DNA of 38,329 bases, from positions 1-38,329 of the forward strand of contig JAZKZC010000059.1 in the NCBI GenBank assembly GCA_045612465.1, in the 5' to 3' direction. Of the stretch, positions 364 to 28,118 are shown piece by piece (positions within the stretch are counted from its first letter, which is position 1; each line of letters begins with the position of its first letter). The position numbers and the translations under genes are program-made. The DNA comes from Eubacteriales bacterium (lineage in GTDB: Bacteria > Bacillota > Clostridia > Oscillospirales > CAG-272). The notes beneath the pieces are model-generated. The model did no database searches and had not been told where the DNA came from. It was given only the letters and a program-made list of their open reading frames with translations.

Positions 364-3300
364 TTATTTTACATTGATCGTTACCGGATCGGAGAATACG
401 TAAATTATTCCGCCGCCCATAATTGTATACTTGTGTCTGAATATAACGGTTGATGTGCCTTCGCTGTAACCGTGGATATACTTACCGTCGTAAGCGATGT
501 TTTCGTTTCCGCCGATAACGAACATTTCAACATCAGAAGCACGATCTGTTTTGCCTGCATACGTTTCTGTCTTGAGTCCGATATCAAGCGCTGTACCTGT
601 GCTTACTGTGTATTCTGTCTTATCTGTGAAAAGGAATTTCGTGTAATCGGTTACAAACTGTGCGTAGTTCGTTGTTACACCGTTTATGCCCATTTCAAAA
701 TACGTGTGGAACGAGGATGCATCGTTAAACGTCCAGGGCCATACCGTAATTCCTCTGTATGAGCAATCTGCAAGGAAGTTTCTGTTGAGGTCATCGGAAT
801 AACCGGGGTTGTACGTACAGTTGAATCTTGATGTGTAATCGTGTACCGACGTGAACGACTGTGCGTTGCAAAGGAAGCCGTTTGAAATGGTCGGTATTGT
901 TGATGTTGCATTATCCATCTGCGCCATGTGGAACGTGATGAAACAGCACTGATCCATAATGTCGTACTTGTCTATCAAGGTCTTGATAGCGGGGATTATC
1001 TCCGCTTTCTGGGATTTGATTTCGATGAACAGATTTACACCCGTGCCCTTGAATGCCTTGAAGTAATCTTCAAGCGTGGGAATAGGCTCGGAATATCCCG
1101 AATAGTAATCTACGTAGTATTGCTTGAGCTGTGCGTATGTCATCGATTCGATACCGCCCGAACCGTTTGTGGTTCTGTCGATAGAACCGTCGTGCATAAC
1201 GACTACAACGCCGTCTGTTGTCAGGTAAACGTCATTTTCGATGATGTTTGCGCCCTTTGATGCCGCCAGAAGCGAGCCTGCAATCGTATTTTCGGGAGCA
1301 AGTGACGGAACACCTCTGTGACCGATGATGTTAACAGGACGGATGTGTGTGCTGTACTGGAACATCGTCTTGTCTTCCATAATGTCCTTGAGCATATCGA
1401 CGTTTGTTGTGACAATACCGTGAGCGCCCGATGTTATGAGCTTGTAAAGCTCAACCTTTGTGTTTTCCTCTGCTCTGTACCATACCGTGCTTGCAAGTGC
1501 CGAAAGATATGCTGTGTTTCTCTGATTTGCACGGGATGCGGGGAGGAGAATTACACGGCTGTGTCCTTCGTTTGCATATTCACGTACCGTTCCGAGGTCT
1601 TTATCCGAAAGGCCTTTCGCATCGTATACGCATTTTGTGTACGTGCAAACGGCTTGCGCTGTACGGAGCTGTGTTCTGCTCGTGGATACCACGAATGAGT
1701 CACGCAGGTTGTATTGCTTCAGATAACTGCCTATTGCGTTTGCTTCGGGCAGTGAATCTATTCTGAATGCGGGGATAGTCTTGTTGCCGAAGAATTTAAG
1801 TGCGCTTGTTACGTCTGTAATGTAAGCGCCGTCAGCATTTACTACCGAGAGATCCTCTGTGATGTTGAGAATTGCAACGGCGGGCTTTGAAGTGCTGAGA
1901 TGCGCAAGATCGCCCGAGGAGTTTATCTCTGTTATCGTCGATGCTTCAACGCAGATGTTTGTGTCGATGTCTTCAACGTCTGCAATTGCCGAGATGCTTG
2001 CACCCTTGCTTATCTTGTCGAAGTTTATAGTTACCTTTACATCGTCGTATGACGTTGTAGAACCGCAGTTCTGAAGTCCGAGCTTACCTGTCGGATAAGC
2101 CGAGTCAAGTCCCGTTGCGCTGATAACCTTTGTGCCGTTGATGTAACCGTCAGAGCTGTTTGCGTACACGTCAATGGTGAATTTGTATGACTTTGCAGCG
2201 TCGAGCGCTTCTGTATACGATGTCTTTGCGTGATACATCCAGTCGCCCGTTGTCTTGTATGAAAGCTCAACGCCGTTGTTGTTGGATGTTGCCGCATTTG
2301 CTCTTATACAGTATTGCTGATACGGACAGTCGTCATTCTGTACACGGTACATAAGCGCCATCCAGCGTGCGCTGTCAGCTTTCTGTGTCATCGTAGCGTT
2401 TGTTGTGAATGTGTATTCGCCGAAATCGCCGATGAATGACGGTAACAGTATGCGCACGAATGCGGATGCTGATGACGGAGCGGCAAGCACGAGCTTACCG
2501 CCTGAAACGGTAGCTGTTCCGTTGGTAGCCTGAATTACCTTGAATGAGCTGAGATCGCTCGATGAAAAATCGTTGTAGTAAAGTGTGTACTCTGTATCAG
2601 AGGGCTTCTTTACGACGAGATATACCGTTTTTGATTTCGTTCCCGACTTCGCCGTAAGCTTGTAAACACCCTCGGATTTCGGAGAAACCGTTTTGCTTGA
2701 GCTTACCGTGATTTCGGATGATGACCAGGTGATGTTTTCTTTCGCAGTAGCAACACCGTTTTCAAATTCAACGTCATACTGTGAAAGTCTTATCGTTCCG
2801 CCTACGTTTGCGGGGATAGCAGGGCAGGAGTAAGTTGCCGTGCCGAGTGACTTCTGCTCACGGAAAACAAGCGTAACCTTGATGTCCTCGTATGATGCGG
2901 TCGCACCGCATACCTGCAAGCCGATGCGTCCCATCGAGTGGTCGTTGAGAAGCGAGGTCTGCAAAAGGAGCGAATCGTTTATGTATCCGTTTGCGGAGCT
3001 TCCGAACACGTCTACCGTGAATTTGTAGTACGTCGATGTCGAAAGCTTTGAAGAATACGATGTCTTGCCGAAATATCCCCAATCATATCCGTCTATTGGT
3101 TTATAAGCGAATTCAACGCCGTTTGATGCGGCGGCATTCGACCTTACACACATCTGATAGTAAGGATAGTTGGAATTCTGTACGCGGTGCATGATCGACA
3201 TCCATCTGGAGTCGTTGCTTGCCGCTGTGATCGCAGCATTCGTCGTTATCTTGTAATCGCCGAAGTCGCCGAGGAATGAGGGCAGAAGAACACGCACGAA

Positions 3301-4458
3301 GTTTGTGTTTGAGCCGAGAGCCGATAAAACGAGCTTGCCGTTTGAAACGGTAGCCGTTCCGTTTGTTGTTTCGATAATATCAAGCTCGTTGAGCTTCGAG
3401 GATGATGAAAAGTCGTTTGAATAAAGTACGTATTCCGTATCGGATGCGTTCTTGACGACGAGATATATCGTCTTCGATGCTGTGCTTGACTTAGCTGTCA
3501 GCTTGTAAACACCCGCTTTGCTCGGTGTTACCTTTTTGTTTGTGACAGTGATCTCTGATGATGACCACGTTATTTTTGATCTGTCCGTTCTGACATCCTG
3601 TGTCAGTTCTACGTCGTAAAGCGAAAGGTCGACCGTTTCGCCTGCGTTGGCAGGGATCGCGGGCATCGTGTATGCTATAAGATTATTGAACGATGTAACA
3701 TCGGAGTCTTCATTGTTCAATGATATGTCAGCGGATGAAACCTTGACGTTTACTCTCGTCTTTTTGTTTGAATAAATAACGTCAACGTACGTGTCACCTG
3801 CCTTGAAGCAAGTACCGGAGGGGTATGAATATGTAAATCCGTCAGCGATGGAGTGTGTTGTACCGTCTGAATATTTTACCGATACGAACATACCGAATGA
3901 CGAGAACGTTTCACCCTCTGTATAAGACGTTCTTTCGGGTGTGCCCACGATAGAAATGCTTGATACCTTTCTTGTGAGAATGGATGTTATCGCACTCTTG
4001 TCGCTTGTATTTACCTTGCCGTCGCCGTTTGCATCAGCGGCAAGTTTTGCAACACCTGAAAGGGAAATGGTGCCGTCCAGATGTTTTTGAAGACGTATAA
4101 GGTCTTTTCCGTTTACACCGCCGTCACACTGAACGTCGCCACGTATGATGACCGTTGCGGAATCAACACCGACACCGTCAACGTAAAGGGTTATGACGTC
4201 ACCCGTAACGACGTATGAACCTGTGGAGCTTGCAAGGCAGTTGCCTTCAAAGAGGTTTACAACACTCTTTACGGTTGATAACGGATCAAGTCCGTAAATG
4301 TATTTTCCCGATGACGTCTGCTCAACGTAAACACTTGAGCCGTTCAGAGGTGTCAGAAGATTTTCCGTGCCTGTTGCCATCATAAGCGATTGGGTTGCGG
4401 GAAGTATGCAAGCCAAGGCGCAAAGACAGGCAATAATGCGTTTGATTTTGTTTTTCAT
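364..4458 (-). CDS. Secreted multidomain protein with a signal peptide, dockerin-type repeat pair, Ig-like module, two tandem ~270-aa Ig-like+lectin-like modules, a degenerate GDPD-like domain and a catalytic glycerophosphodiester phosphodiesterase (GDPD) domain
   Basis: 1364-aa ORF with an N-terminal hydrophobic signal (MKNKIKRIIACLCALACILPA).
- Dockerin-like EF-hand pair: DVQCDGGVNGKDL and DANGDGKVNTSD (DNA 3979-4143).
- Residues 266-533 and 546-813 are clear paralogous repeats (PAIPAN...ITWSSSEITV...VYKLTAKS...TNGTATVS.GKLVL...LLPSF.GDFG).
- GDPD signature: IIGHRGVPSLAPENTIAGSLLAASKGANIIENDVYLTTDGVVVVMHDGSIDRTTNG (DNA about 655-1338). Confidence 0.9.
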   Translation of the reverse strand: MKNKIKRIIACLCALACILPATQSLMMATGTENLLTPLNGSSVYVEQTSSGKYIYGLDPLSTVKSVVNLFEGNCLASSTGSYVVTGDVITLYVDGVGVDSATVIIRGDVQCDGGVNGKDLIRLQKHLDGTISLSGVAKLAADANGDGKVNTSDKSAITSILTRKVSSISIVGTPERTSYTEGETFSSFGMFVSVKYSDGTTHSIADGFTYSYPSGTCFKAGDTYVDVIYSNKKTRVNVKVSSADISLNNEDSDVTSFNNLIAYTMPAIPANAGETVDLSLYDVELTQDVRTDRSKITWSSSEITVTNKKVTPSKAGVYKLTAKSSTASKTIYLVVKNASDTEYVLYSNDFSSSSKLNELDIIETTNGTATVSNGKLVLSALGSNTNFVRVLLPSFLGDFGDYKITTNAAITAASNDSRWMSIMHRVQNSNYPYYQMCVRSNAAASNGVEFAYKPIDGYDWGYFGKTSYSSKLSTSTYYKFTVDVFGSSANGYINDSLLLQTSLLNDHSMGRIGLQVCGATASYEDIKVTLVFREQKSLGTATYSCPAIPANVGGTIRLSQYDVEFENGVATAKENITWSSSEITVSSSKTVSPKSEGVYKLTAKSGTKSKTVYLVVKKPSDTEYTLYYNDFSSSDLSSFKVIQATNGTATVSGGKLVLAAPSSASAFVRILLPSFIGDFGEYTFTTNATMTQKADSARWMALMYRVQNDDCPYQQYCIRANAATSNNNGVELSYKTTGDWMYHAKTSYTEALDAAKSYKFTIDVYANSSDGYINGTKVISATGLDSAYPTGKLGLQNCGSTTSYDDVKVTINFDKISKGASISAIADVEDIDTNICVEASTITEINSSGDLAHLSTSKPAVAILNITEDLSVVNADGAYITDVTSALKFFGNKTIPAFRIDSLPEANAIGSYLKQYNLRDSFVVSTSRTQLRTAQAVCTYTKCVYDAKGLSDKDLGTVREYANEGHSRVILLPASRANQRNTAYLSALASTVWYRAEENTKVELYKLITSGAHGIVTTNVDMLKDIMEDKTMFQYSTHIRPVNIIGHRGVPSLAPENTIAGSLLAASKGANIIENDVYLTTDGVVVVMHDGSIDRTTNGSGGIESMTYAQLKQYYVDYYSGYSEPIPTLEDYFKAFKGTGVNLFIEIKSQKAEIIPAIKTLIDKYDIMDQCCFITFHMAQMDNATSTIPTISNGFLCNAQSFTSVHDYTSRFNCTYNPGYSDDLNRNFLADCSYRGITVWPWTFNDASSFHTYFEMGINGVTTNYAQFVTDYTKFLFTDKTEYTVSTGTALDIGLKTETYAGKTDRASDVEMFVIGGNENIAYDGKYIHGYSEGTSTVIFRHKYTIMGGGIIYVFSDPVTINVK

Positions 4459-5138: not shown

Positions 5139-5918
5139 ATGAGTAAAAAAGAAAAGAATGAAATTATTTACGCATCAATAATAACTGTTATTATGACAGT
5201 TATGAATATCTCTGGTTGGCCAGCTACTCTGTTTATCAATGTTAATATCCTCGATATTCAGCCATTCTATTTCTCTTTGATGTTTAATTTTGTGTTAACC
5301 GCTATTGTGTTTATTGCCGCATGGAAAGTACTTTATCCCGATTGGAACTTTGGTTTAGGTACTCAGGGGTTGATATCAGGAATTAGGGAATATGCCGTAT
5401 CGGGAATGATTATATTCTTTCTCTCCACATTTGCCTTTGTAATTGGTCTAACACCGTTTAATAACCAACCAACTATTGCAAAAGTTGTGGTTGAGGGTTT
5501 TGTGTACTATATTGGAGTAGCATTCATAGAAGAACTGTACATTCGAGGATTGCTTCAAAATATTATCGAAAAACTGTTTCATAAGAAGAAAAATGCCTCT
5601 TTTTATGCAATTATCCTTTCATCAGTAATTTTTGGTATCGGGCATATATTCGGTGCATTGGGCAGTTCTATTTTGGCAATAATCTGCAAAGTTGTATGGA
5701 CGATTGCATTAGGTTTGTATTTGGGTGTGATTTATAAGAAAACCGGAAATCTCTGGGTTCCTGTTATTCTACATACTGTTATTGATTTTTGTGCATGGCC
5801 GTTCTGCTATTCTACCATTCCACCATATCCGCAAATCTCTTTATGGATATTGCTTGTGGTCTATGCTGGGGTAGGAGCATATGCTCTTGGCATTATGGTG
5901 AAGAATAGGCACCGCTAA
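5139..5918 (+). CDS. CPBP family intramembrane glutamic endopeptidase (CAAX protease / Abi-type, PF02517-like)
   Basis: 259-aa polytopic membrane protein with the family motifs EELYIRGLL (EExxxR), FGIGH (FxxxH) and HTVIDF. An RBS (gaggat) precedes the ATG. The gene is visibly more AT-rich and CpG-poor than its neighbours. Confidence 0.85.
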   Translation: MSKKEKNEIIYASIITVIMTVMNISGWPATLFINVNILDIQPFYFSLMFNFVLTAIVFIAAWKVLYPDWNFGLGTQGLISGIREYAVSGMIIFFLSTFAFVIGLTPFNNQPTIAKVVVEGFVYYIGVAFIEELYIRGLLQNIIEKLFHKKKNASFYAIILSSVIFGIGHIFGALGSSILAIICKVVWTIALGLYLGVIYKKTGNLWVPVILHTVIDFCAWPFCYSTIPPYPQISLWILLVVYAGVGAYALGIMVKNRHR

Positions 5919-6022
5919 ATTCCAATTTCTCGGTGAGCTTGTTTTCTTGCCGTGCATTAAAAAACGAAAGTTATTTTGCCCGGAGCTATAGGTTGAAGAT
6001 TTTATACAAAAAGGAACTTATT

Positions 6023-6445
6023 ATGCAAAATTTTGGAATGTCAATGCTTTATTTTTGGGTATCTTATGCCATAGTTACTGCTATAGGGATACTTCACACG
6101 GTTTTTAACATATATGTACTTCATATGAAGCCGATGGACAGCGAAAGTATGGGCGAGGGGTATGAAAAAACAAAGCCGTGGCACCCGTTATACAATATAA
6201 TACTGTTTTCGGTATTCGGTTATCTTTATATGAACGGCTTGGCGACGCCAACACTTACGGAAGCTTTGATAACGGGAGCGATATGGGCAGGTATCTGCAT
6301 CGTTTTTGATGTATTCGGCTGGGTTATTATCAAACATCCGTGGAGCTTGTCATTCAAGGGCTTTTACATAGACTATCAGCCGTGGATAACACTTATATAT
6401 CTTGCTATATTTGCAGGTCCCGTTATAGGATTTTTTATGTGCTGA
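6023..6445 (+). CDS. Small integral membrane protein, function unknown (about 4 TM segments)
   Basis: I shortened the ORF-track frame 5933..6445 to the ATG at 6023, which has AGGA 7 nt upstream. Hydrophobic segments run throughout. I recognise no family. Confidence 0.65.
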   Translation: MQNFGMSMLYFWVSYAIVTAIGILHTVFNIYVLHMKPMDSESMGEGYEKTKPWHPLYNIILFSVFGYLYMNGLATPTLTEALITGAIWAGICIVFDVFGWVIIKHPWSLSFKGFYIDYQPWITLIYLAIFAGPVIGFFMC

Positions 6446-7893: not shown

Positions 7894-8163
7894 TTATTTT
7901 GTCCCGTCCTTTTCTTTATTATGCAGATATTTGTTTTTTGTGGCAATTCCGCCTCTTATGTGACGCTCGGCTTTGTTTACGTTCAGCACCTCGCACACTT
8001 GTCCGTGAAGCGTTGGGTGTACGTATTTAAGACGCTCGGTAACGTCTTTATGTACCGTTGACTTCGAAACACCGAATTTTGCTGCGCATGTGCGCACCGT
8101 TTGCCCTGTTTCGGCAATGTACTGCCCTAAAATAACGCACCTTTCTTTTATGTCGTATTCCAT
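7894..8163 (-). CDS. spoIIID: Stage III sporulation protein D, mother-cell DNA-binding regulator
   Basis: 89 aa. The sequence IKERCVILGQYIAETGQTVRTCAAKFGVSKSTVHKDVTERL...RHIRGGIATK is a close match to the SpoIIID HTH family. Confidence 0.9.
   Translation of the reverse strand: MEYDIKERCVILGQYIAETGQTVRTCAAKFGVSKSTVHKDVTERLKYVHPTLHGQVCEVLNVNKAERHIRGGIATKNKYLHNKEKDGTK
7895..7924 (-). promoter_or_regulatory. Candidate forespore (sigma-G/F-like) promoter inside the 3' end of spoIIID
   Basis: The minus strand reads GCATA (7920-7924), an 18-nt spacer, then CAAAATA (7895-7901). My remembered consensus is GnATR-N18-CATnnTA, so this has one mismatch. It is a weak call from pattern matching only. Confidence 0.3.
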
Positions 8164-8299
8164 ATCCTTTACAACCTTTCAGTTCGTTTTGTAAAGTTTA
8201 TGCGACGGCATTTTTTTATATTCCGTTATTGTTTTCAAAATCCGCTTGAAATAGTAACGGCTGTTATGATACGATAAATAAAAAACTGTGAGGTGACCT

Positions 8300-22493: not shown

Positions 22494-22667
22494 AATGATG
22501 TTTGCCTGTCACGCAAATGATGTTGGCTTCGCCAATGATGACGGCTTCGCCTAATGATGTGTGCCTGTGGGCACATAGGGACAAACAGCGCATCATTGCG
22601 GAATGAAGTGGAACAACATCATATTTGCGAAGCAAATGCATCATATCGCCGCAGGCGATGCATCATT
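22494..22667. repeat. Heptamer/hairpin array A: 4x AATGATG then 4x CATCAT(T), separated by short hairpins of differing sequence
   Basis: AATGATG occurs at 22494, 22516, 22534 and 22553. CATCAT(T) occurs at 22591, 22617, 22639 and 22661. Hairpins lie at 22501-22517, 22523-22535, 22560-22575, 22623-22637 and 22645-22659. Confidence 0.7.
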
Positions 22668-22673
22668 GAAGAC

Positions 22674-22744
22674 ATACAAGGCTTACGCCTTGATTTGTTT
22701 ACGATAGTGTGATATAATAAACTCACTGATAAATAAGAATTTGA
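22674..22744 (+). promoter_or_regulatory. Repeated promoter module, copy R2
   Basis: atacaaggc-ttac-gccTTGATT (-35 at 22690-22695), a 17-nt spacer, TG-a-TATAAT (22713-22718), then ctgataaataagaatttg, the same leader as R1. Confidence 0.6.
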
Positions 22745-22799
22745 CGAACTGTTCACAAGACTTGAATTGTTGAGAATATACTATTCTGAGGAGGATAAA

Positions 22800-23321: not shown

Positions 23322-23451
23322 ATACTTGTTTGTTCACAAGCAAAGCGGCTTGAGATTAACAAATTCCAATTTATCGAATGGGAACACTTGGTGTACTTTT
23401 AGTCGTTCTTACCTGCATTTACGCACCGTTTGTGCGCTTCTTCGCAGCGAA

Positions 23452-23480
23452 AGGAGCAAGTCATATGACTTGCTCTTTTT
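23452..23480 (+). terminator. Rho-independent terminator after the flavodoxin-like gene
   Basis: gagcaagtca-ta-tgacttgctc followed by ttttt. Confidence 0.75.
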
Positions 23481-23486
23481 GCAACT

Positions 23487-23632
23487 AAATCCACCCTTGC
23501 GGGTGGGTGAAATCATCTTCGATGATGAAATTCCCCACGGAAATGAAATCTGCCTCGACGGCGAATGGGTGGATTTAATTTCATCTGAAGCCGCAGGCTG
23601 AAGATTTCATCCGAATAAAGTGAGGATTTCAT
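23487..23632. repeat. Heptamer/hairpin array B: 3x RTGAAAT then 3x ATTTCAT with interleaved hairpins; inverted homologue of array C
   Basis: RTGAAAT occurs at 23507, 23525 and 23543. ATTTCAT occurs at 23578, 23604 and 23626. Hairpins include ccaccc-ttgc-gggtgg (23491-23506), catc-ttc-gatg (23514-23524) and tcc-ccac-gga (23532-23541). There is also a 10-bp long-range pair, aaatccaccc (23487) / gggtggattt (23567). Confidence 0.75.
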
Positions 23633-23677
23633 TTAATATACATGTCATATCTTAATTTATGATTATATTAAAAGATA

Positions 23678-23707
23678 TTGACATTTATTATATATTTATG
23701 ATATAAT
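23678..23707 (+). promoter_or_regulatory. Candidate sigma-A promoter of putP
   Basis: TTGACA (23678-23683), then TATAAT (23702-23707) after an 18-nt spacer. Confidence 0.5.
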
Positions 23708-27957: not shown

Positions 27958-28085
27958 GTGAAATATTCGGCGATGCCGAATGTGAAATTAAATCCACCCA
28001 TCCGCCTTCGAGGCGGATTTCACCCAACGAAGTTGGATTTCATCGTCGAAGACGATTTCACCCACCCGCAAGGGTGGATTTAATT
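27958..28085. repeat. Heptamer/hairpin array C (inverted copy of array B)
   Basis: On the + strand, GTGAAAT occurs at 27958 and 27982, and ATTTCAC/T at 28017, 28037 and 28055. Hairpins:
- attcggc-gat-gccgaat (27965-27981)
- tccgcct-tcg-aggcgga (28001-28017)
- ccaac-gaa-gttgg (28024-28036)
- cgtc-gaa-gacg (28044-28054)
- ccaccc-gcaa-gggtgg (28062-28077). Confidence 0.75.
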
Positions 28086-28086
28086 G

Positions 28087-28118
28087 AAAAACAGACTTGT
28101 CGAAACAAGTCGGTTTTT
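28087..28118 (-). terminator. Rho-independent terminator of the tRNA-Thr/Tyr operon
   Basis: The minus strand reads aaaaaccgacttgt-ttcg-acaagtctgttttt followed by T-rich sequence. Confidence 0.75.

Follow-up and report, generated by a model that had tools for sequence, protein, structure and literature searches.

The question raised by positions 23,487 to 23,632 of contig JAZKZC010000059.1, from a Eubacteriales bacterium, is what kind of element joins a row of small, dissimilar hairpins by one constant heptamer, RTGAAAT, and then runs the same heptamer in inverted form, ATTTCAT. We refer to this element as array B and to the whole stretch of 38,329 nucleotides that was analyzed as the window. 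Array B, which lies between a flavodoxin-like gene and putP, is a real, partly decayed, gene-less (solo) copy of the Gut-1 repeat (Rfam RF01706). Our tentative reading of the complete repeat, to which we assign a probability of roughly 45%, is that it acts at the DNA level as a cis platform, or display array, for an oligomer of the PF05635 four-helix-bundle family, with an open/closed switch contained in its pairing.

Array B and the Gut-1 family

On re-reading the sequence, we found the RTGAAAT words of array B starting at 23507, 23525 and 23543 and the ATTTCAT words at 23578, 23604 and 23626. The pairing segments are AAATCCACCC (23487-23496), GGGTGG (23501-23506) and GGGTGGATTT (23567-23576). 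The preliminary description of this locus had placed all of these exactly to the base, and the five hairpins that it listed (ccaccc-ttgc-gggtgg, catc-ttc-gatg, tcc-ccac-gga, gcc-tcgac-ggc and agcc-gca-ggct) are all present, the last three being short (3-4 bp); the spacer at 23611-23625 forms no hairpin. The pattern is far from chance. Three matches to the three-word pattern occur in the window against 0.00 expected from 100 shuffles, the pattern of a second array, array A, occurs four times against 0.00 expected by shuffling, and a scan that ignored the identity of the word found 42 such arrays in the window and the loci described below and none in shuffled sequence. Folding of both strands against dinucleotide-shuffled controls, which had been proposed as a check, revealed more structure than in the controls both as RNA (z = -4.1 for the plus and -3.8 for the minus strand) and as DNA (z = -3.6 and -3.7).

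We used the curated Rfam gathering score, 50 bits, as the cut-off for membership in Gut-1. The model matched the window at 23482-23554 on the plus strand (62.3 bits, E = 1.3e-11, model positions 1-77 of 77) and at 28012-28086 on the minus strand (79.4 bits). Gut-1 is defined by three variable hairpins split by GUGAAAU, and the first three hairpins of array B, H1, H2 and H3, are arranged in this way; the habitat, gut Clostridia, is also shared. Array B belongs to the Gut-1 family by its 5′ half. The motif was described in 2010 from human gut metagenomes by Weinberg et al., whose sole comment on it was that it is absent from sequenced organisms (PMC2864571), and we found no literature on Gut-1 after that paper. 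The paper is silent on the alternative pairing, the second arm, the position relative to tRNA genes and terminators and the four-helix-bundle neighbor (PMC2864571). What is new at the level of the family is the full architecture, the conserved two-state pairing, a DNA-type loop rule, the tRNA position and the protein neighbor.

A single pattern scan of species-representative genomes returned 120 loci, 31 of them with true hairpin arrays; L-numbers such as L027, L036 and L122 are labels of fetched loci. Nearly all of the 31 hosts are metagenome-assembled genomes (MAGs) of gut or rumen Clostridia (Acutalibacteraceae, Ruminococcus, Christensenellaceae and others), and the remainder are two Akkermansia and one labelled Bacteroidaceae. 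Gut-1 matches were present in 18 other loci and fell in the terminator-proximal arm in nearly all of them, while in L049 the second arm scored above the threshold too. The layout of the element is fixed. In the 5′ half, a terminator-type hairpin with its T-run (H0) is followed by an often degenerate first word (W0) and by four hairpins, H1-H4, linked by RTGAAAT. The 3′ half consists of a center, which carries a second copy of the 3′ arm of H1 followed by ATTT, and an inverted arm of two to five ATTTCAY words with hairpins of its own. Measured from W0 up to the first ATTTCAY, all 24 extracted elements span 94-100 nt. A full Gut-1-type element measures about 125-190 nt, whereas the Rfam model is 77 nt long and extends from W0 to the start of H4. 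The Gut-1 seed sequences, taken with their flanks, show the same terminator, center and inverted arm; they carry the word variant GUGAUAU/AUAUCAC, at times beside GUGAAAU in one arm.

Among 134 inter-word hairpins, 123 are distinct, and the 7-nt linker alone is constant. That the heptamer is kept while the hairpin sequences differ points to sequence-specific recognition of the linker. Similarity between loci is restricted to the element itself (140-220 nt, 72-87% identity), and the flanks are unrelated. These results bear on the earlier interpretation in different ways. The proposed grammar, a constant heptamer with variable hairpins and an inverted second half, recurs in arrays A and C of the window and in dozens of loci, and because homologues abound in gut Clostridia and Akkermansia, it survived the search for further copies on which it had been staked. 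The suggestion of a generative rule did not, since the copies are homologous members of a dispersed repeat, similar over the element only, and are not made on the spot. Overall, the observation was sound and the interpretation held in part: the grammar and the alternative pairing stand, and the ideas of different designs, of bracketing and of a generative rule do not.

Read against the fixed layout, array B (plus strand) is eroded. H0, the terminator hairpin of the flavodoxin-like gene, is a palindrome (ggagcaagtc/gacttgctc) at 23453-23480 with its T-run at 23476-23480. W0 is the degenerate word tgcaact at 23480-23486, between the T-run and H1, and was recognized by alignment with other copies, in which its equivalents read caattaaat, caacgaaat or RTGAAAT. 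H1 (23487-23506) is formed by an arm X, AAATCCACCC, the loop TTGC and the local partner X′a, GGGTGG. The stretch 23507-23549 holds the words W1-W3 (23507-23513, 23525-23531 and 23543-23549) with H2 (23514-23524) and H3 (23532-23541), of which H3 has 3 bp only. H4 (23550-23563) retains three Watson-Crick pairs and one G-T pair, compared with 5 bp in array C. X′b, GGGTGGATTT, at 23567-23576, is the distal partner of X and closes the proximal arm as a stem around H2-H4. In the distal arm (23578-23632), the three ATTTCAT words are accompanied by H5 (agcc-gca-ggct, 23589-23599), and the decayed spacer at 23611-23625 shows a degenerate third X′ copy, gtgaggattt, at 23620-23629. The minus strand of array B scores only 17.3 bits against the Gut-1 model, whereas well-kept distal arms have three or four perfect hairpins. 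With H3 and H4 weak, one distal spacer devoid of a hairpin and a distal arm at 17 bits, the decay is similar to that of L108 compared with L099a.

Array C (27958-28090, minus strand), behind tRNA-Thr/tRNA-Tyr, is the better-kept sister copy (Gut-1, 79.4 bits). Its H1 and X′b are identical to those of array B, its DNA fold has a z of -6.8, and the H2 hairpins of the two arrays are one compensatory pair apart (catc/gatg in B, cgtc/gacg in C). Array A (22494-22667, plus strand), behind tRNA-Ser, is built on the word variant ATGATG(T)/CATCAT and matched no family in Rfam; it shares the hairpin atttgcgaagcaaat with Gut-1 copies. Its orthologue in L122 keeps the terminator and the words but has two left-arm units instead of four, and GCGTAGC in place of GCGAAGC. 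ATGATG-type arrays occur in L035, L058 and L122. Arrays A and B had been described as one architecture with different heptamers. Because ATGATGT, like RTGAWAT, fits RTGAWRT, the two arrays are better regarded as word variants of one superfamily.

Several further arrangements of the words were seen. L035 (3300-3860) contains two tandem units of about 280 bp in each of which an ATGATG arm and a GTGAAAT arm run towards one two-way terminator hairpin that they share; from one unit to the other the hairpins have been replaced, not mutated, as if drawn from a common vocabulary. In L027, an Akkermansia MAG, the stretches 2150-3350 and 5700-6170 comprise three tandem units of about 440 bp, each with a GTGAAAT arm followed directly by a GCGAGAT arm, and a separate hairpin array on another word, described below. 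Behind tRNA-Tyr in the window (28094-28111) lies the terminator hairpin ACTTGTTTCGACAAGT, which is also found behind tRNA-Ser upstream of the array of L060, from another species. It contains TTCGACA, which resembles a Spo0A box, probably by coincidence.

Competing helices and the probable folding strand

The preliminary description had proposed that the 5′ arm of array B can pair either locally or with a distal partner, and had suggested looking for conservation of these pairings in homologous copies. We examined both helices in the alignment of the 24 elements. The distal helix, in which W0 and X pair with X′b and ATTT (columns 1-13 with 98-110, the W0 columns 1-3 pairing with 108-110), was paired in 93.9% of cells, and seven of its 13 pairs were changed on both sides (56 cells). 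None of 500 shuffles reached the observed value, and the best slid control gave 51%. The local helix H1 (columns 8-13 with 20-25) was paired in 91.7% of cells, all six of its pairs were changed on both sides, again none of 500 shuffles reached this value, and the best slid control gave 55%. The X arm itself falls into at least seven sequence classes (CCACCC, CCGTCT, CCGCC, AAATCC, TTTGCCC, TTCGCC and TCGTTCC). The 10-bp distal pairing is real, the local and distal partners covary with the same 5′ arm, and the alternative is conserved in the elements of relatives. The three-way match of X, X′a and X′b could also stem from a duplication of X′ without selection for both pairings.

The two conformers of copy C are isoenergetic, both as RNA (-54.8 and -54.6 kcal/mol) and as DNA (-33.1 and -33.0 kcal/mol). 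In the eroded copy B, the local form is favored by 7.5 kcal/mol as RNA and by 2.5 kcal/mol as DNA. When the proximal arm and center were folded alone in 21 elements, the closed form, a long stem around H2-H4, was more stable than the form in which X′b is blocked, the mean advantage being 8.7 kcal/mol for RNA and 3.7 kcal/mol for DNA. Pairing of the words themselves, RTGAAAT with ATTTCAY, was considered as the organizing principle and rejected: the converging arms of L035 carry different words, in L040, L060 and L028 no covariation between arms was seen, by eye, at the variable first letter of the word, and such pairing would cross the well-supported X:X′b helix.

To which molecule and strand does this folding belong? 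Among 122 clean hairpins, 96 are perfectly Watson-Crick paired, and single G-T pairs were counted 8 times on the RTGAAAT strand and 10 times on the opposite one. An earlier, smaller set had given G-U and A-C counts of 7 and 16, compared with the 8 and 10 of this cleaner and larger one. The wobble pairs give no strand signal, and the G-U enrichment usual in functional RNAs is absent. The loops are more informative. In 89 distinct hairpins with loops of 3-4 nt, 65 loops begin with T and end with C on the RTGAAAT strand and only 2 run from G to A; a C-G pair closes 83 of the 89. Read on the ATTTCAY strand, the 65 loops have the form C(GNA)G or C(GNNA)G. This is the rule of the very stable DNA mini-hairpins d(GCGNAGC) and d(GCGNNAGC) (PMC13037366), with their known dependence on the closing pair (PMC3201870), and literal instances occur in array A (GCGAAGC) and in its L122 orthologue (GCGTAGC). 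The mini-hairpin is a physical motif and not a genetic element, and it therefore indicates the likely folding strand, not the purpose of the fold. Half of the tetraloops are GNYA rather than GNRA and so are not favored under the RNA GNRA rule. Furthermore, the arrays are enclosed by a T-run on one side and a promoter on the other, which leaves no space for their own promoter. Taken together, loop orientation, perfect pairing and position make us lean towards folded DNA on the ATTTCAY strand, which would be the bottom strand in the proximal arm and the top strand in the distal arm.

The published assignment is different, because the Gut-1 paper files the motif as a small RNA. As structured RNA, the element would be a bistable multi-hairpin transcript, either a small RNA or the RNA partner of a four-helix-bundle protein, produced by read-through of a weak upstream terminator or by antisense transcription towards the two-way H0 terminator. 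We consider this doubtful, but it is the most serious rival of a DNA-level reading and has substantial points in its favor, which count against that reading. The discoverers classed Gut-1 as RNA on covariation and rated it “Y” for RNA (PMC2864571), and the Rfam covariance model fits array B; the GNA/GNNA rule, however, lies on the strand opposite to that of Rfam, half of the tetraloops are not GNRA, and the scarcity of G-U pairs, which favor neither strand, is unusual for a functional RNA. Array-like sequence is present in metatranscriptome contigs, but these lack strand information and show depth ratios similar to those of DNA runs. A- and T-tracts flank many H0 hairpins on either side, as would suit antisense termination, and H1 resembles a terminator on the antisense strand; no convincing antisense promoter was found, and on the sense strand the T-run leaves no room for a promoter before W0. 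Both alternative helices covary and are isoenergetic in copy C, and proteins of the Avd family act with RNA, Avd itself working with the template RNA of diversity-generating retroelements (DGRs) (PMC6182149). Set against this are the inverted second arm, which places the same grammar on both strands, and the free decay of copies such as array B and L108. The bias towards T..C loops could instead reflect protein contacts on the RTGAAAT strand, which would likewise weaken the case for folding on the ATTTCAY strand.

Other assignments fit poorly. Tandem weak terminators were rejected, as the hairpins lack a U-tract and the words of array A lack T-runs; in the arrays, each hairpin is followed by GTGAAAT or ATTTCAT, and H0 (23453-23480) alone satisfies the criterion for an intrinsic terminator. 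Coding potential was rejected because the spacing is not in multiples of three. A clustered regularly interspaced short palindromic repeats (CRISPR)-like array or Cas6 decoy is a poor match, given a “repeat” of 7 nt and palindromic “spacers” from a shared vocabulary.

Dispersal behind tRNA genes and the PF05635 gene

A tRNA gene lies within 100 nt on the 5′ side of about 13 of the 33 arrays, and in each such case that was checked the order was tRNA, H0 and then the proximal, H1-bearing arm. The distal arm either directly adjoins the sigma-70-type promoter of a gene in the same orientation, as in L058 (ATTTCAC|TTGAAA-17-TATAAT) and L122 (CATCAT|TTGACA-17-TATGAT), or faces a convergent terminator. 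H0 travels with the array: L036, L257 and L260 have the same H0 behind different tRNA genes, and an 840-nt unit comprising H0, array, promoter and gene is 99.6% identical behind two different tRNA genes, with the junction at the CCA end. Complete units directly follow the 3′ ends of tRNA genes, and in them a promoter and a PF05635 gene come within about 55 nt of the array.

Similar small genes stand behind three arrays, those of L036 and L060 and the second array of L099. The genes behind the distal arm in L036 and L060 belong to PF05635 (96 and 86 bits), and L099b has one as well. As a test of this partnership, loci were fetched through three PF05635 proteins, blind to the presence of arrays. 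In 26 of the 29 loci obtained, from at least four genomic contexts, an array ends about 55 nt before the start codon; the other three have less than 80 nt of upstream sequence. Both IMG/VR loci likewise have an array upstream of the PF05635 gene. The combined module is present in L036, L060, L099b, L257-L285, L286 and L287. More distant homologues come with other arrangements. An Akkermansia homologue with 52% identity is preceded by hairpin arrays on a different word, GATATAACC; in L027 the separate array upstream of a PF05635 homologue is built on GATATAACC/GGTTATATC. A homologue with 41% identity is followed by ATTTCAC words without hairpins. Downstream of the homologue in L077 are six ATTTCAC words with 7-nt spacers (attgctc) and no hairpins, and upstream of it are simple gagaaattagaaat repeats.

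PF05635 is a very large and highly conserved family, with more than 8000 close clusters in one search. The closest solved homologue of the protein is 2RLD (E = 7e-26), which has five chains. Most contigs carrying the protein are shorter than 2 kb, as expected if the repeats break assemblies around the gene. To our knowledge, PF05635 (“23S rRNA intervening sequence protein”) has long been an orphan family outside the Avd proteins of DGRs. Two known associations resemble the present one. In the 23S rRNA intervening sequence of Coxiella (PMC4990558), a member of the same family rides with a stem-forming selfish insert at a stable-RNA gene, but inside an rRNA helix, whereas here the gene is outside the structured element and behind a tRNA. 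Avd (PMC6182149), an oligomeric four-helix bundle, acts on structured nucleic acid; unlike DGRs, the units described here have no reverse transcriptase, template repeat or variable repeat.

These results suggest how a DNA-level display array might operate. Mini-hairpins with C(GNA)G or C(GNNA)G loops would form on the ATTTCAY strand when it is unpaired, exposed by replication, transcription-driven supercoiling or extrusion. The hairpins would thereby present the constant heptamers, a row of proposed sites to which the four-helix-bundle oligomer could bind, and the competition between the H1 and center pairings would leave the proximal arm open or closed. In complete units the outcome may be control of the adjacent promoter, spread of the unit, or both. 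Array B, followed by putP in place of a PF05635 gene, would be a non-autonomous relic that now does no more than occupy the space from the flavodoxin terminator to the putP promoter. Because putP is the next gene and the window has no PF05635 homologue, we regard array B as a solo copy. It is an eroded bystander and probably has little effect in this genome.

Several other observations also weigh against a PF05635 display array. No PF05635 homologue was found in the window (tblastn E above 0.5), many of the 26 loci repeat a site already recovered from another sample, and arrays far outnumber the linked PF05635 genes. The proteins are not notably basic (pI 8.4 and 6.3), and the adjacency could reflect common lodging behind tRNA genes instead of recognition. 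Neither a clean empty site nor a consistent target duplication was found; in the relatives L121-L127 it is the entire region upstream of putP that is replaced, and not the array alone. An extended version of the proposal, a two-part module in which a stand-alone Avd-like oligomer reads a lineage-specific heptamer exposed between mini-hairpins of transiently single-stranded DNA, the switch gates this reading, and tRNA-anchored cassettes are shuffled or controlled in expression with arrays as exchange points and with no known recombinase, appears improbable to us.

The same dispersal pattern could belong to a selfish or structural extragenic repeat, similar to miniature inverted-repeat transposable elements (MITEs) or to repetitive extragenic palindromes and bacterial interspersed mosaic elements (REP/BIME), with no dedicated protein partner. 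Such a repeat would be spread by an unknown transposase or by recombination and would persist as a supplier of terminators and spacing, the four-helix-bundle gene being a frequent cargo or neighbor. We think this unlikely, although dispersed copies with unrelated flanks, the erosion of copies and differences in unit number between orthologues are as it would predict. Its H0 hairpins travel with the array and end upstream genes, and the array is always flanked either by a terminator and a promoter or by a pair of convergent terminators. A 13-17-bp inverted repeat (W0 and X against X′b and W′1) bounds the proximal arm only; in the element as a whole the word arrays are inverted and the sequence is not. 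Template-switch correction of quasi-palindromes can mimic compensatory change, and could do so here. What a partner-free repeat accounts for less well is the constant heptamer amid 123 differing hairpins out of 134, which points to recognition of the linker, the presence of an array at a fixed distance in every locus reached via the protein, and the different word that comes with a diverged PF05635 homologue.

Evidence of a mobile vehicle was also sought. No transposase was seen at the loci; six adjacent proteins were run through Pfam and none was of the Y1 type, the neighbors having had no screen aimed at REP-associated tyrosine transposases (RAYTs). Array C had no blastn match in plasmid and phage collections, and a pattern scan of viral contigs gave 119 matches, of which two passed the hairpin filter, both plain tandem repeats. 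No consistent target duplication was seen; a 10-nt near-repeat, CAAGTCATAT/CATGTCATAT, is present on the two flanks of array B. The REP/BIME of Enterobacteria are similar in being multi-copy, GC-rich palindromic units that form arrays at gene 3′ ends in both orientations, vary between strains and are thought to act as folded single strands. They differ in that their stems are conserved while the linkers vary, the reverse of the situation here, where the palindromic unit is not conserved in sequence (123 of 134 hairpins distinct); moreover, REP sequences are imperfect palindromes of about 35 nt served by a RAYT transposase, whereas the units here are mini-hairpins of 9-19 nt for which no RAYT is known.

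Flanking genes and possible exchange at the locus

The flavodoxin-like gene upstream of array B (PF12724/PF12641, 22737-23379) has a GC content of 35%, compared with 44% for the window, and is about 99% identical on ruminant and gut metagenome contigs with other flanks. These contigs, of 619-755 nt from cattle, goat and other gut metagenomes, differ from it by 3-6 bases each; putP in the same metagenomes reaches only about 85-90% identity. The flavodoxin-like gene looks like a recently shared accessory gene. Exact-sequence records were found for neither the flavodoxin-like nor the PutP protein of the window.

L122 has the same frame around another middle gene: tRNA-Ser terminator, array A, promoter and gene, a 43-nt tail, terminator and Gut-1 array. 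The tail module, cgttcttacctgcatttacgcaccgtttgtgcgcttcttcgcag, lies upstream of the terminator at 23404-23446 (plus strand) in the window and is about 93% identical, by eye, in L122 (minus strand, about 8160-8230), where it stands behind the different gene and before a terminator and another Gut-1 array; tail and terminator together are 75% identical over 110 nt (blastn). The tail contains a 5-bp hairpin, cgcac-cgttt-gtgcg, and a 20-nt pattern from it gave only three chance matches in metagenomes, all in coding DNA.

This common frame around different genes is what an integron-like logic would lead one to expect: a tRNA-anchored cassette system in which the arrays serve as folded single-strand recombination sites for the exchange of promoter-gene cassettes. 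The low GC content of the flavodoxin-like gene and its near-identity elsewhere between other flanks agree with such a system, as does the presence of arrays on either side of four-helix-bundle genes. The arrays resemble attC sites in that their structure is maintained while the sequence changes, that folding of one DNA strand is proposed for them and that they lie between short accessory genes. We nevertheless consider a cassette system very improbable. Flavodoxin homologues in five other contexts are free of arrays, the right-hand junction of the swapped segment is the tail and not an array, and the L257-L260 junction is a tRNA end, not an array edge. No recombinase is known. The attC core sites (RYYYAAC ... 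GTTRRRY) are absent from the sequence, the words being RTGAWRT/AYWTCAY, and no integrase was seen, although no genome-wide search was made. In addition, each neighboring gene has its own promoter, and many small hairpins take the place of one long imperfect one. The gene swaps would be accounted for by ordinary homologous recombination between the dispersed repeats.

The notion that arrays A and B bracket an AT-rich gene as a unit fails on the same comparison, since the flavodoxin homologues in the five other contexts, and likewise the putP genes of relatives, have no arrays; for this reason the arrays were rejected as a property of a flavodoxin cassette. We read the arrangement as repeats populating the gaps between terminators and promoters in variable islands by tRNA genes.

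Homology between the window and L122 at putP begins at 23659, 27 nt past array B. The putP promoter (23678-23707, plus strand) is TTGACA-18-TATAAT with a TG extension and 12 of 12 consensus matches; it is a neighbor and not part of the repeat. In the relatives L121-L127, whose PutP proteins are 86-92% identical, no array lies upstream of putP, and the neighboring upstream gene is replaced too. Array B is therefore lineage-specific. One of the closest relatives, L121 (PutP 92%), has a PF05635 gene 1.8 kb upstream of putP, at the contig end. In these close relatives, the DNA upstream of putP is a hotspot whose content varies, and the genes found there in L121-L127 include TIR/TPR and Sel1 genes, small orphan genes, a tRNA, an ABC transporter and a PF05635 gene; the putP promoter itself is conserved.

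Further features were noted around the flavodoxin-like gene. At 22710-22743, a -10 box and about 25 nt downstream of it, tgatataataaactcactgataaataagaattt, have, in gut metagenomes, a summed k-mer depth that exceeds that of the gene by a factor of up to 250; tgatataataaactcactgataaataagaattt is a highly repeated promoter/leader module, continued on either side by many different sequences. The open reading frame (ORF) stands between two direct copies of a 10-nt repeat, TGTTCACAAG, at 22750-22759 and 23331-23340, and L122 has TTGTTCAC just past the stop codon of its different gene; the TGTTCACAAG repeat may mark the edges of the exchanged segment or may be due to chance. In L132 and L134, the flavodoxin homologue is bracketed by direct repeats of about 70 nt (…gtttaagyctytgacaatggcwaaataatttttrtacaatttggggttgacaatcca…), and L132 has an rve-integrase ORF just upstream of the homologue, a different kind of cassette flank.

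Gut-1 has stood in Rfam since 2010 without a function or a host and with a truncated model. The full element is double the length given in the catalogue, its two-state pairing is conserved and, when complete, it is the fixed upstream neighbor of a PF05635 gene. Two orphans, Gut-1 and PF05635, can thus be brought into one experiment, a binding test in which strand, molecule and heptamer are the variables. In practical terms, metagenome assemblies break at these repeats around small accessory genes, and in abundant Clostridia of the rumen and gut the repeats mark variable islands by tRNA genes.

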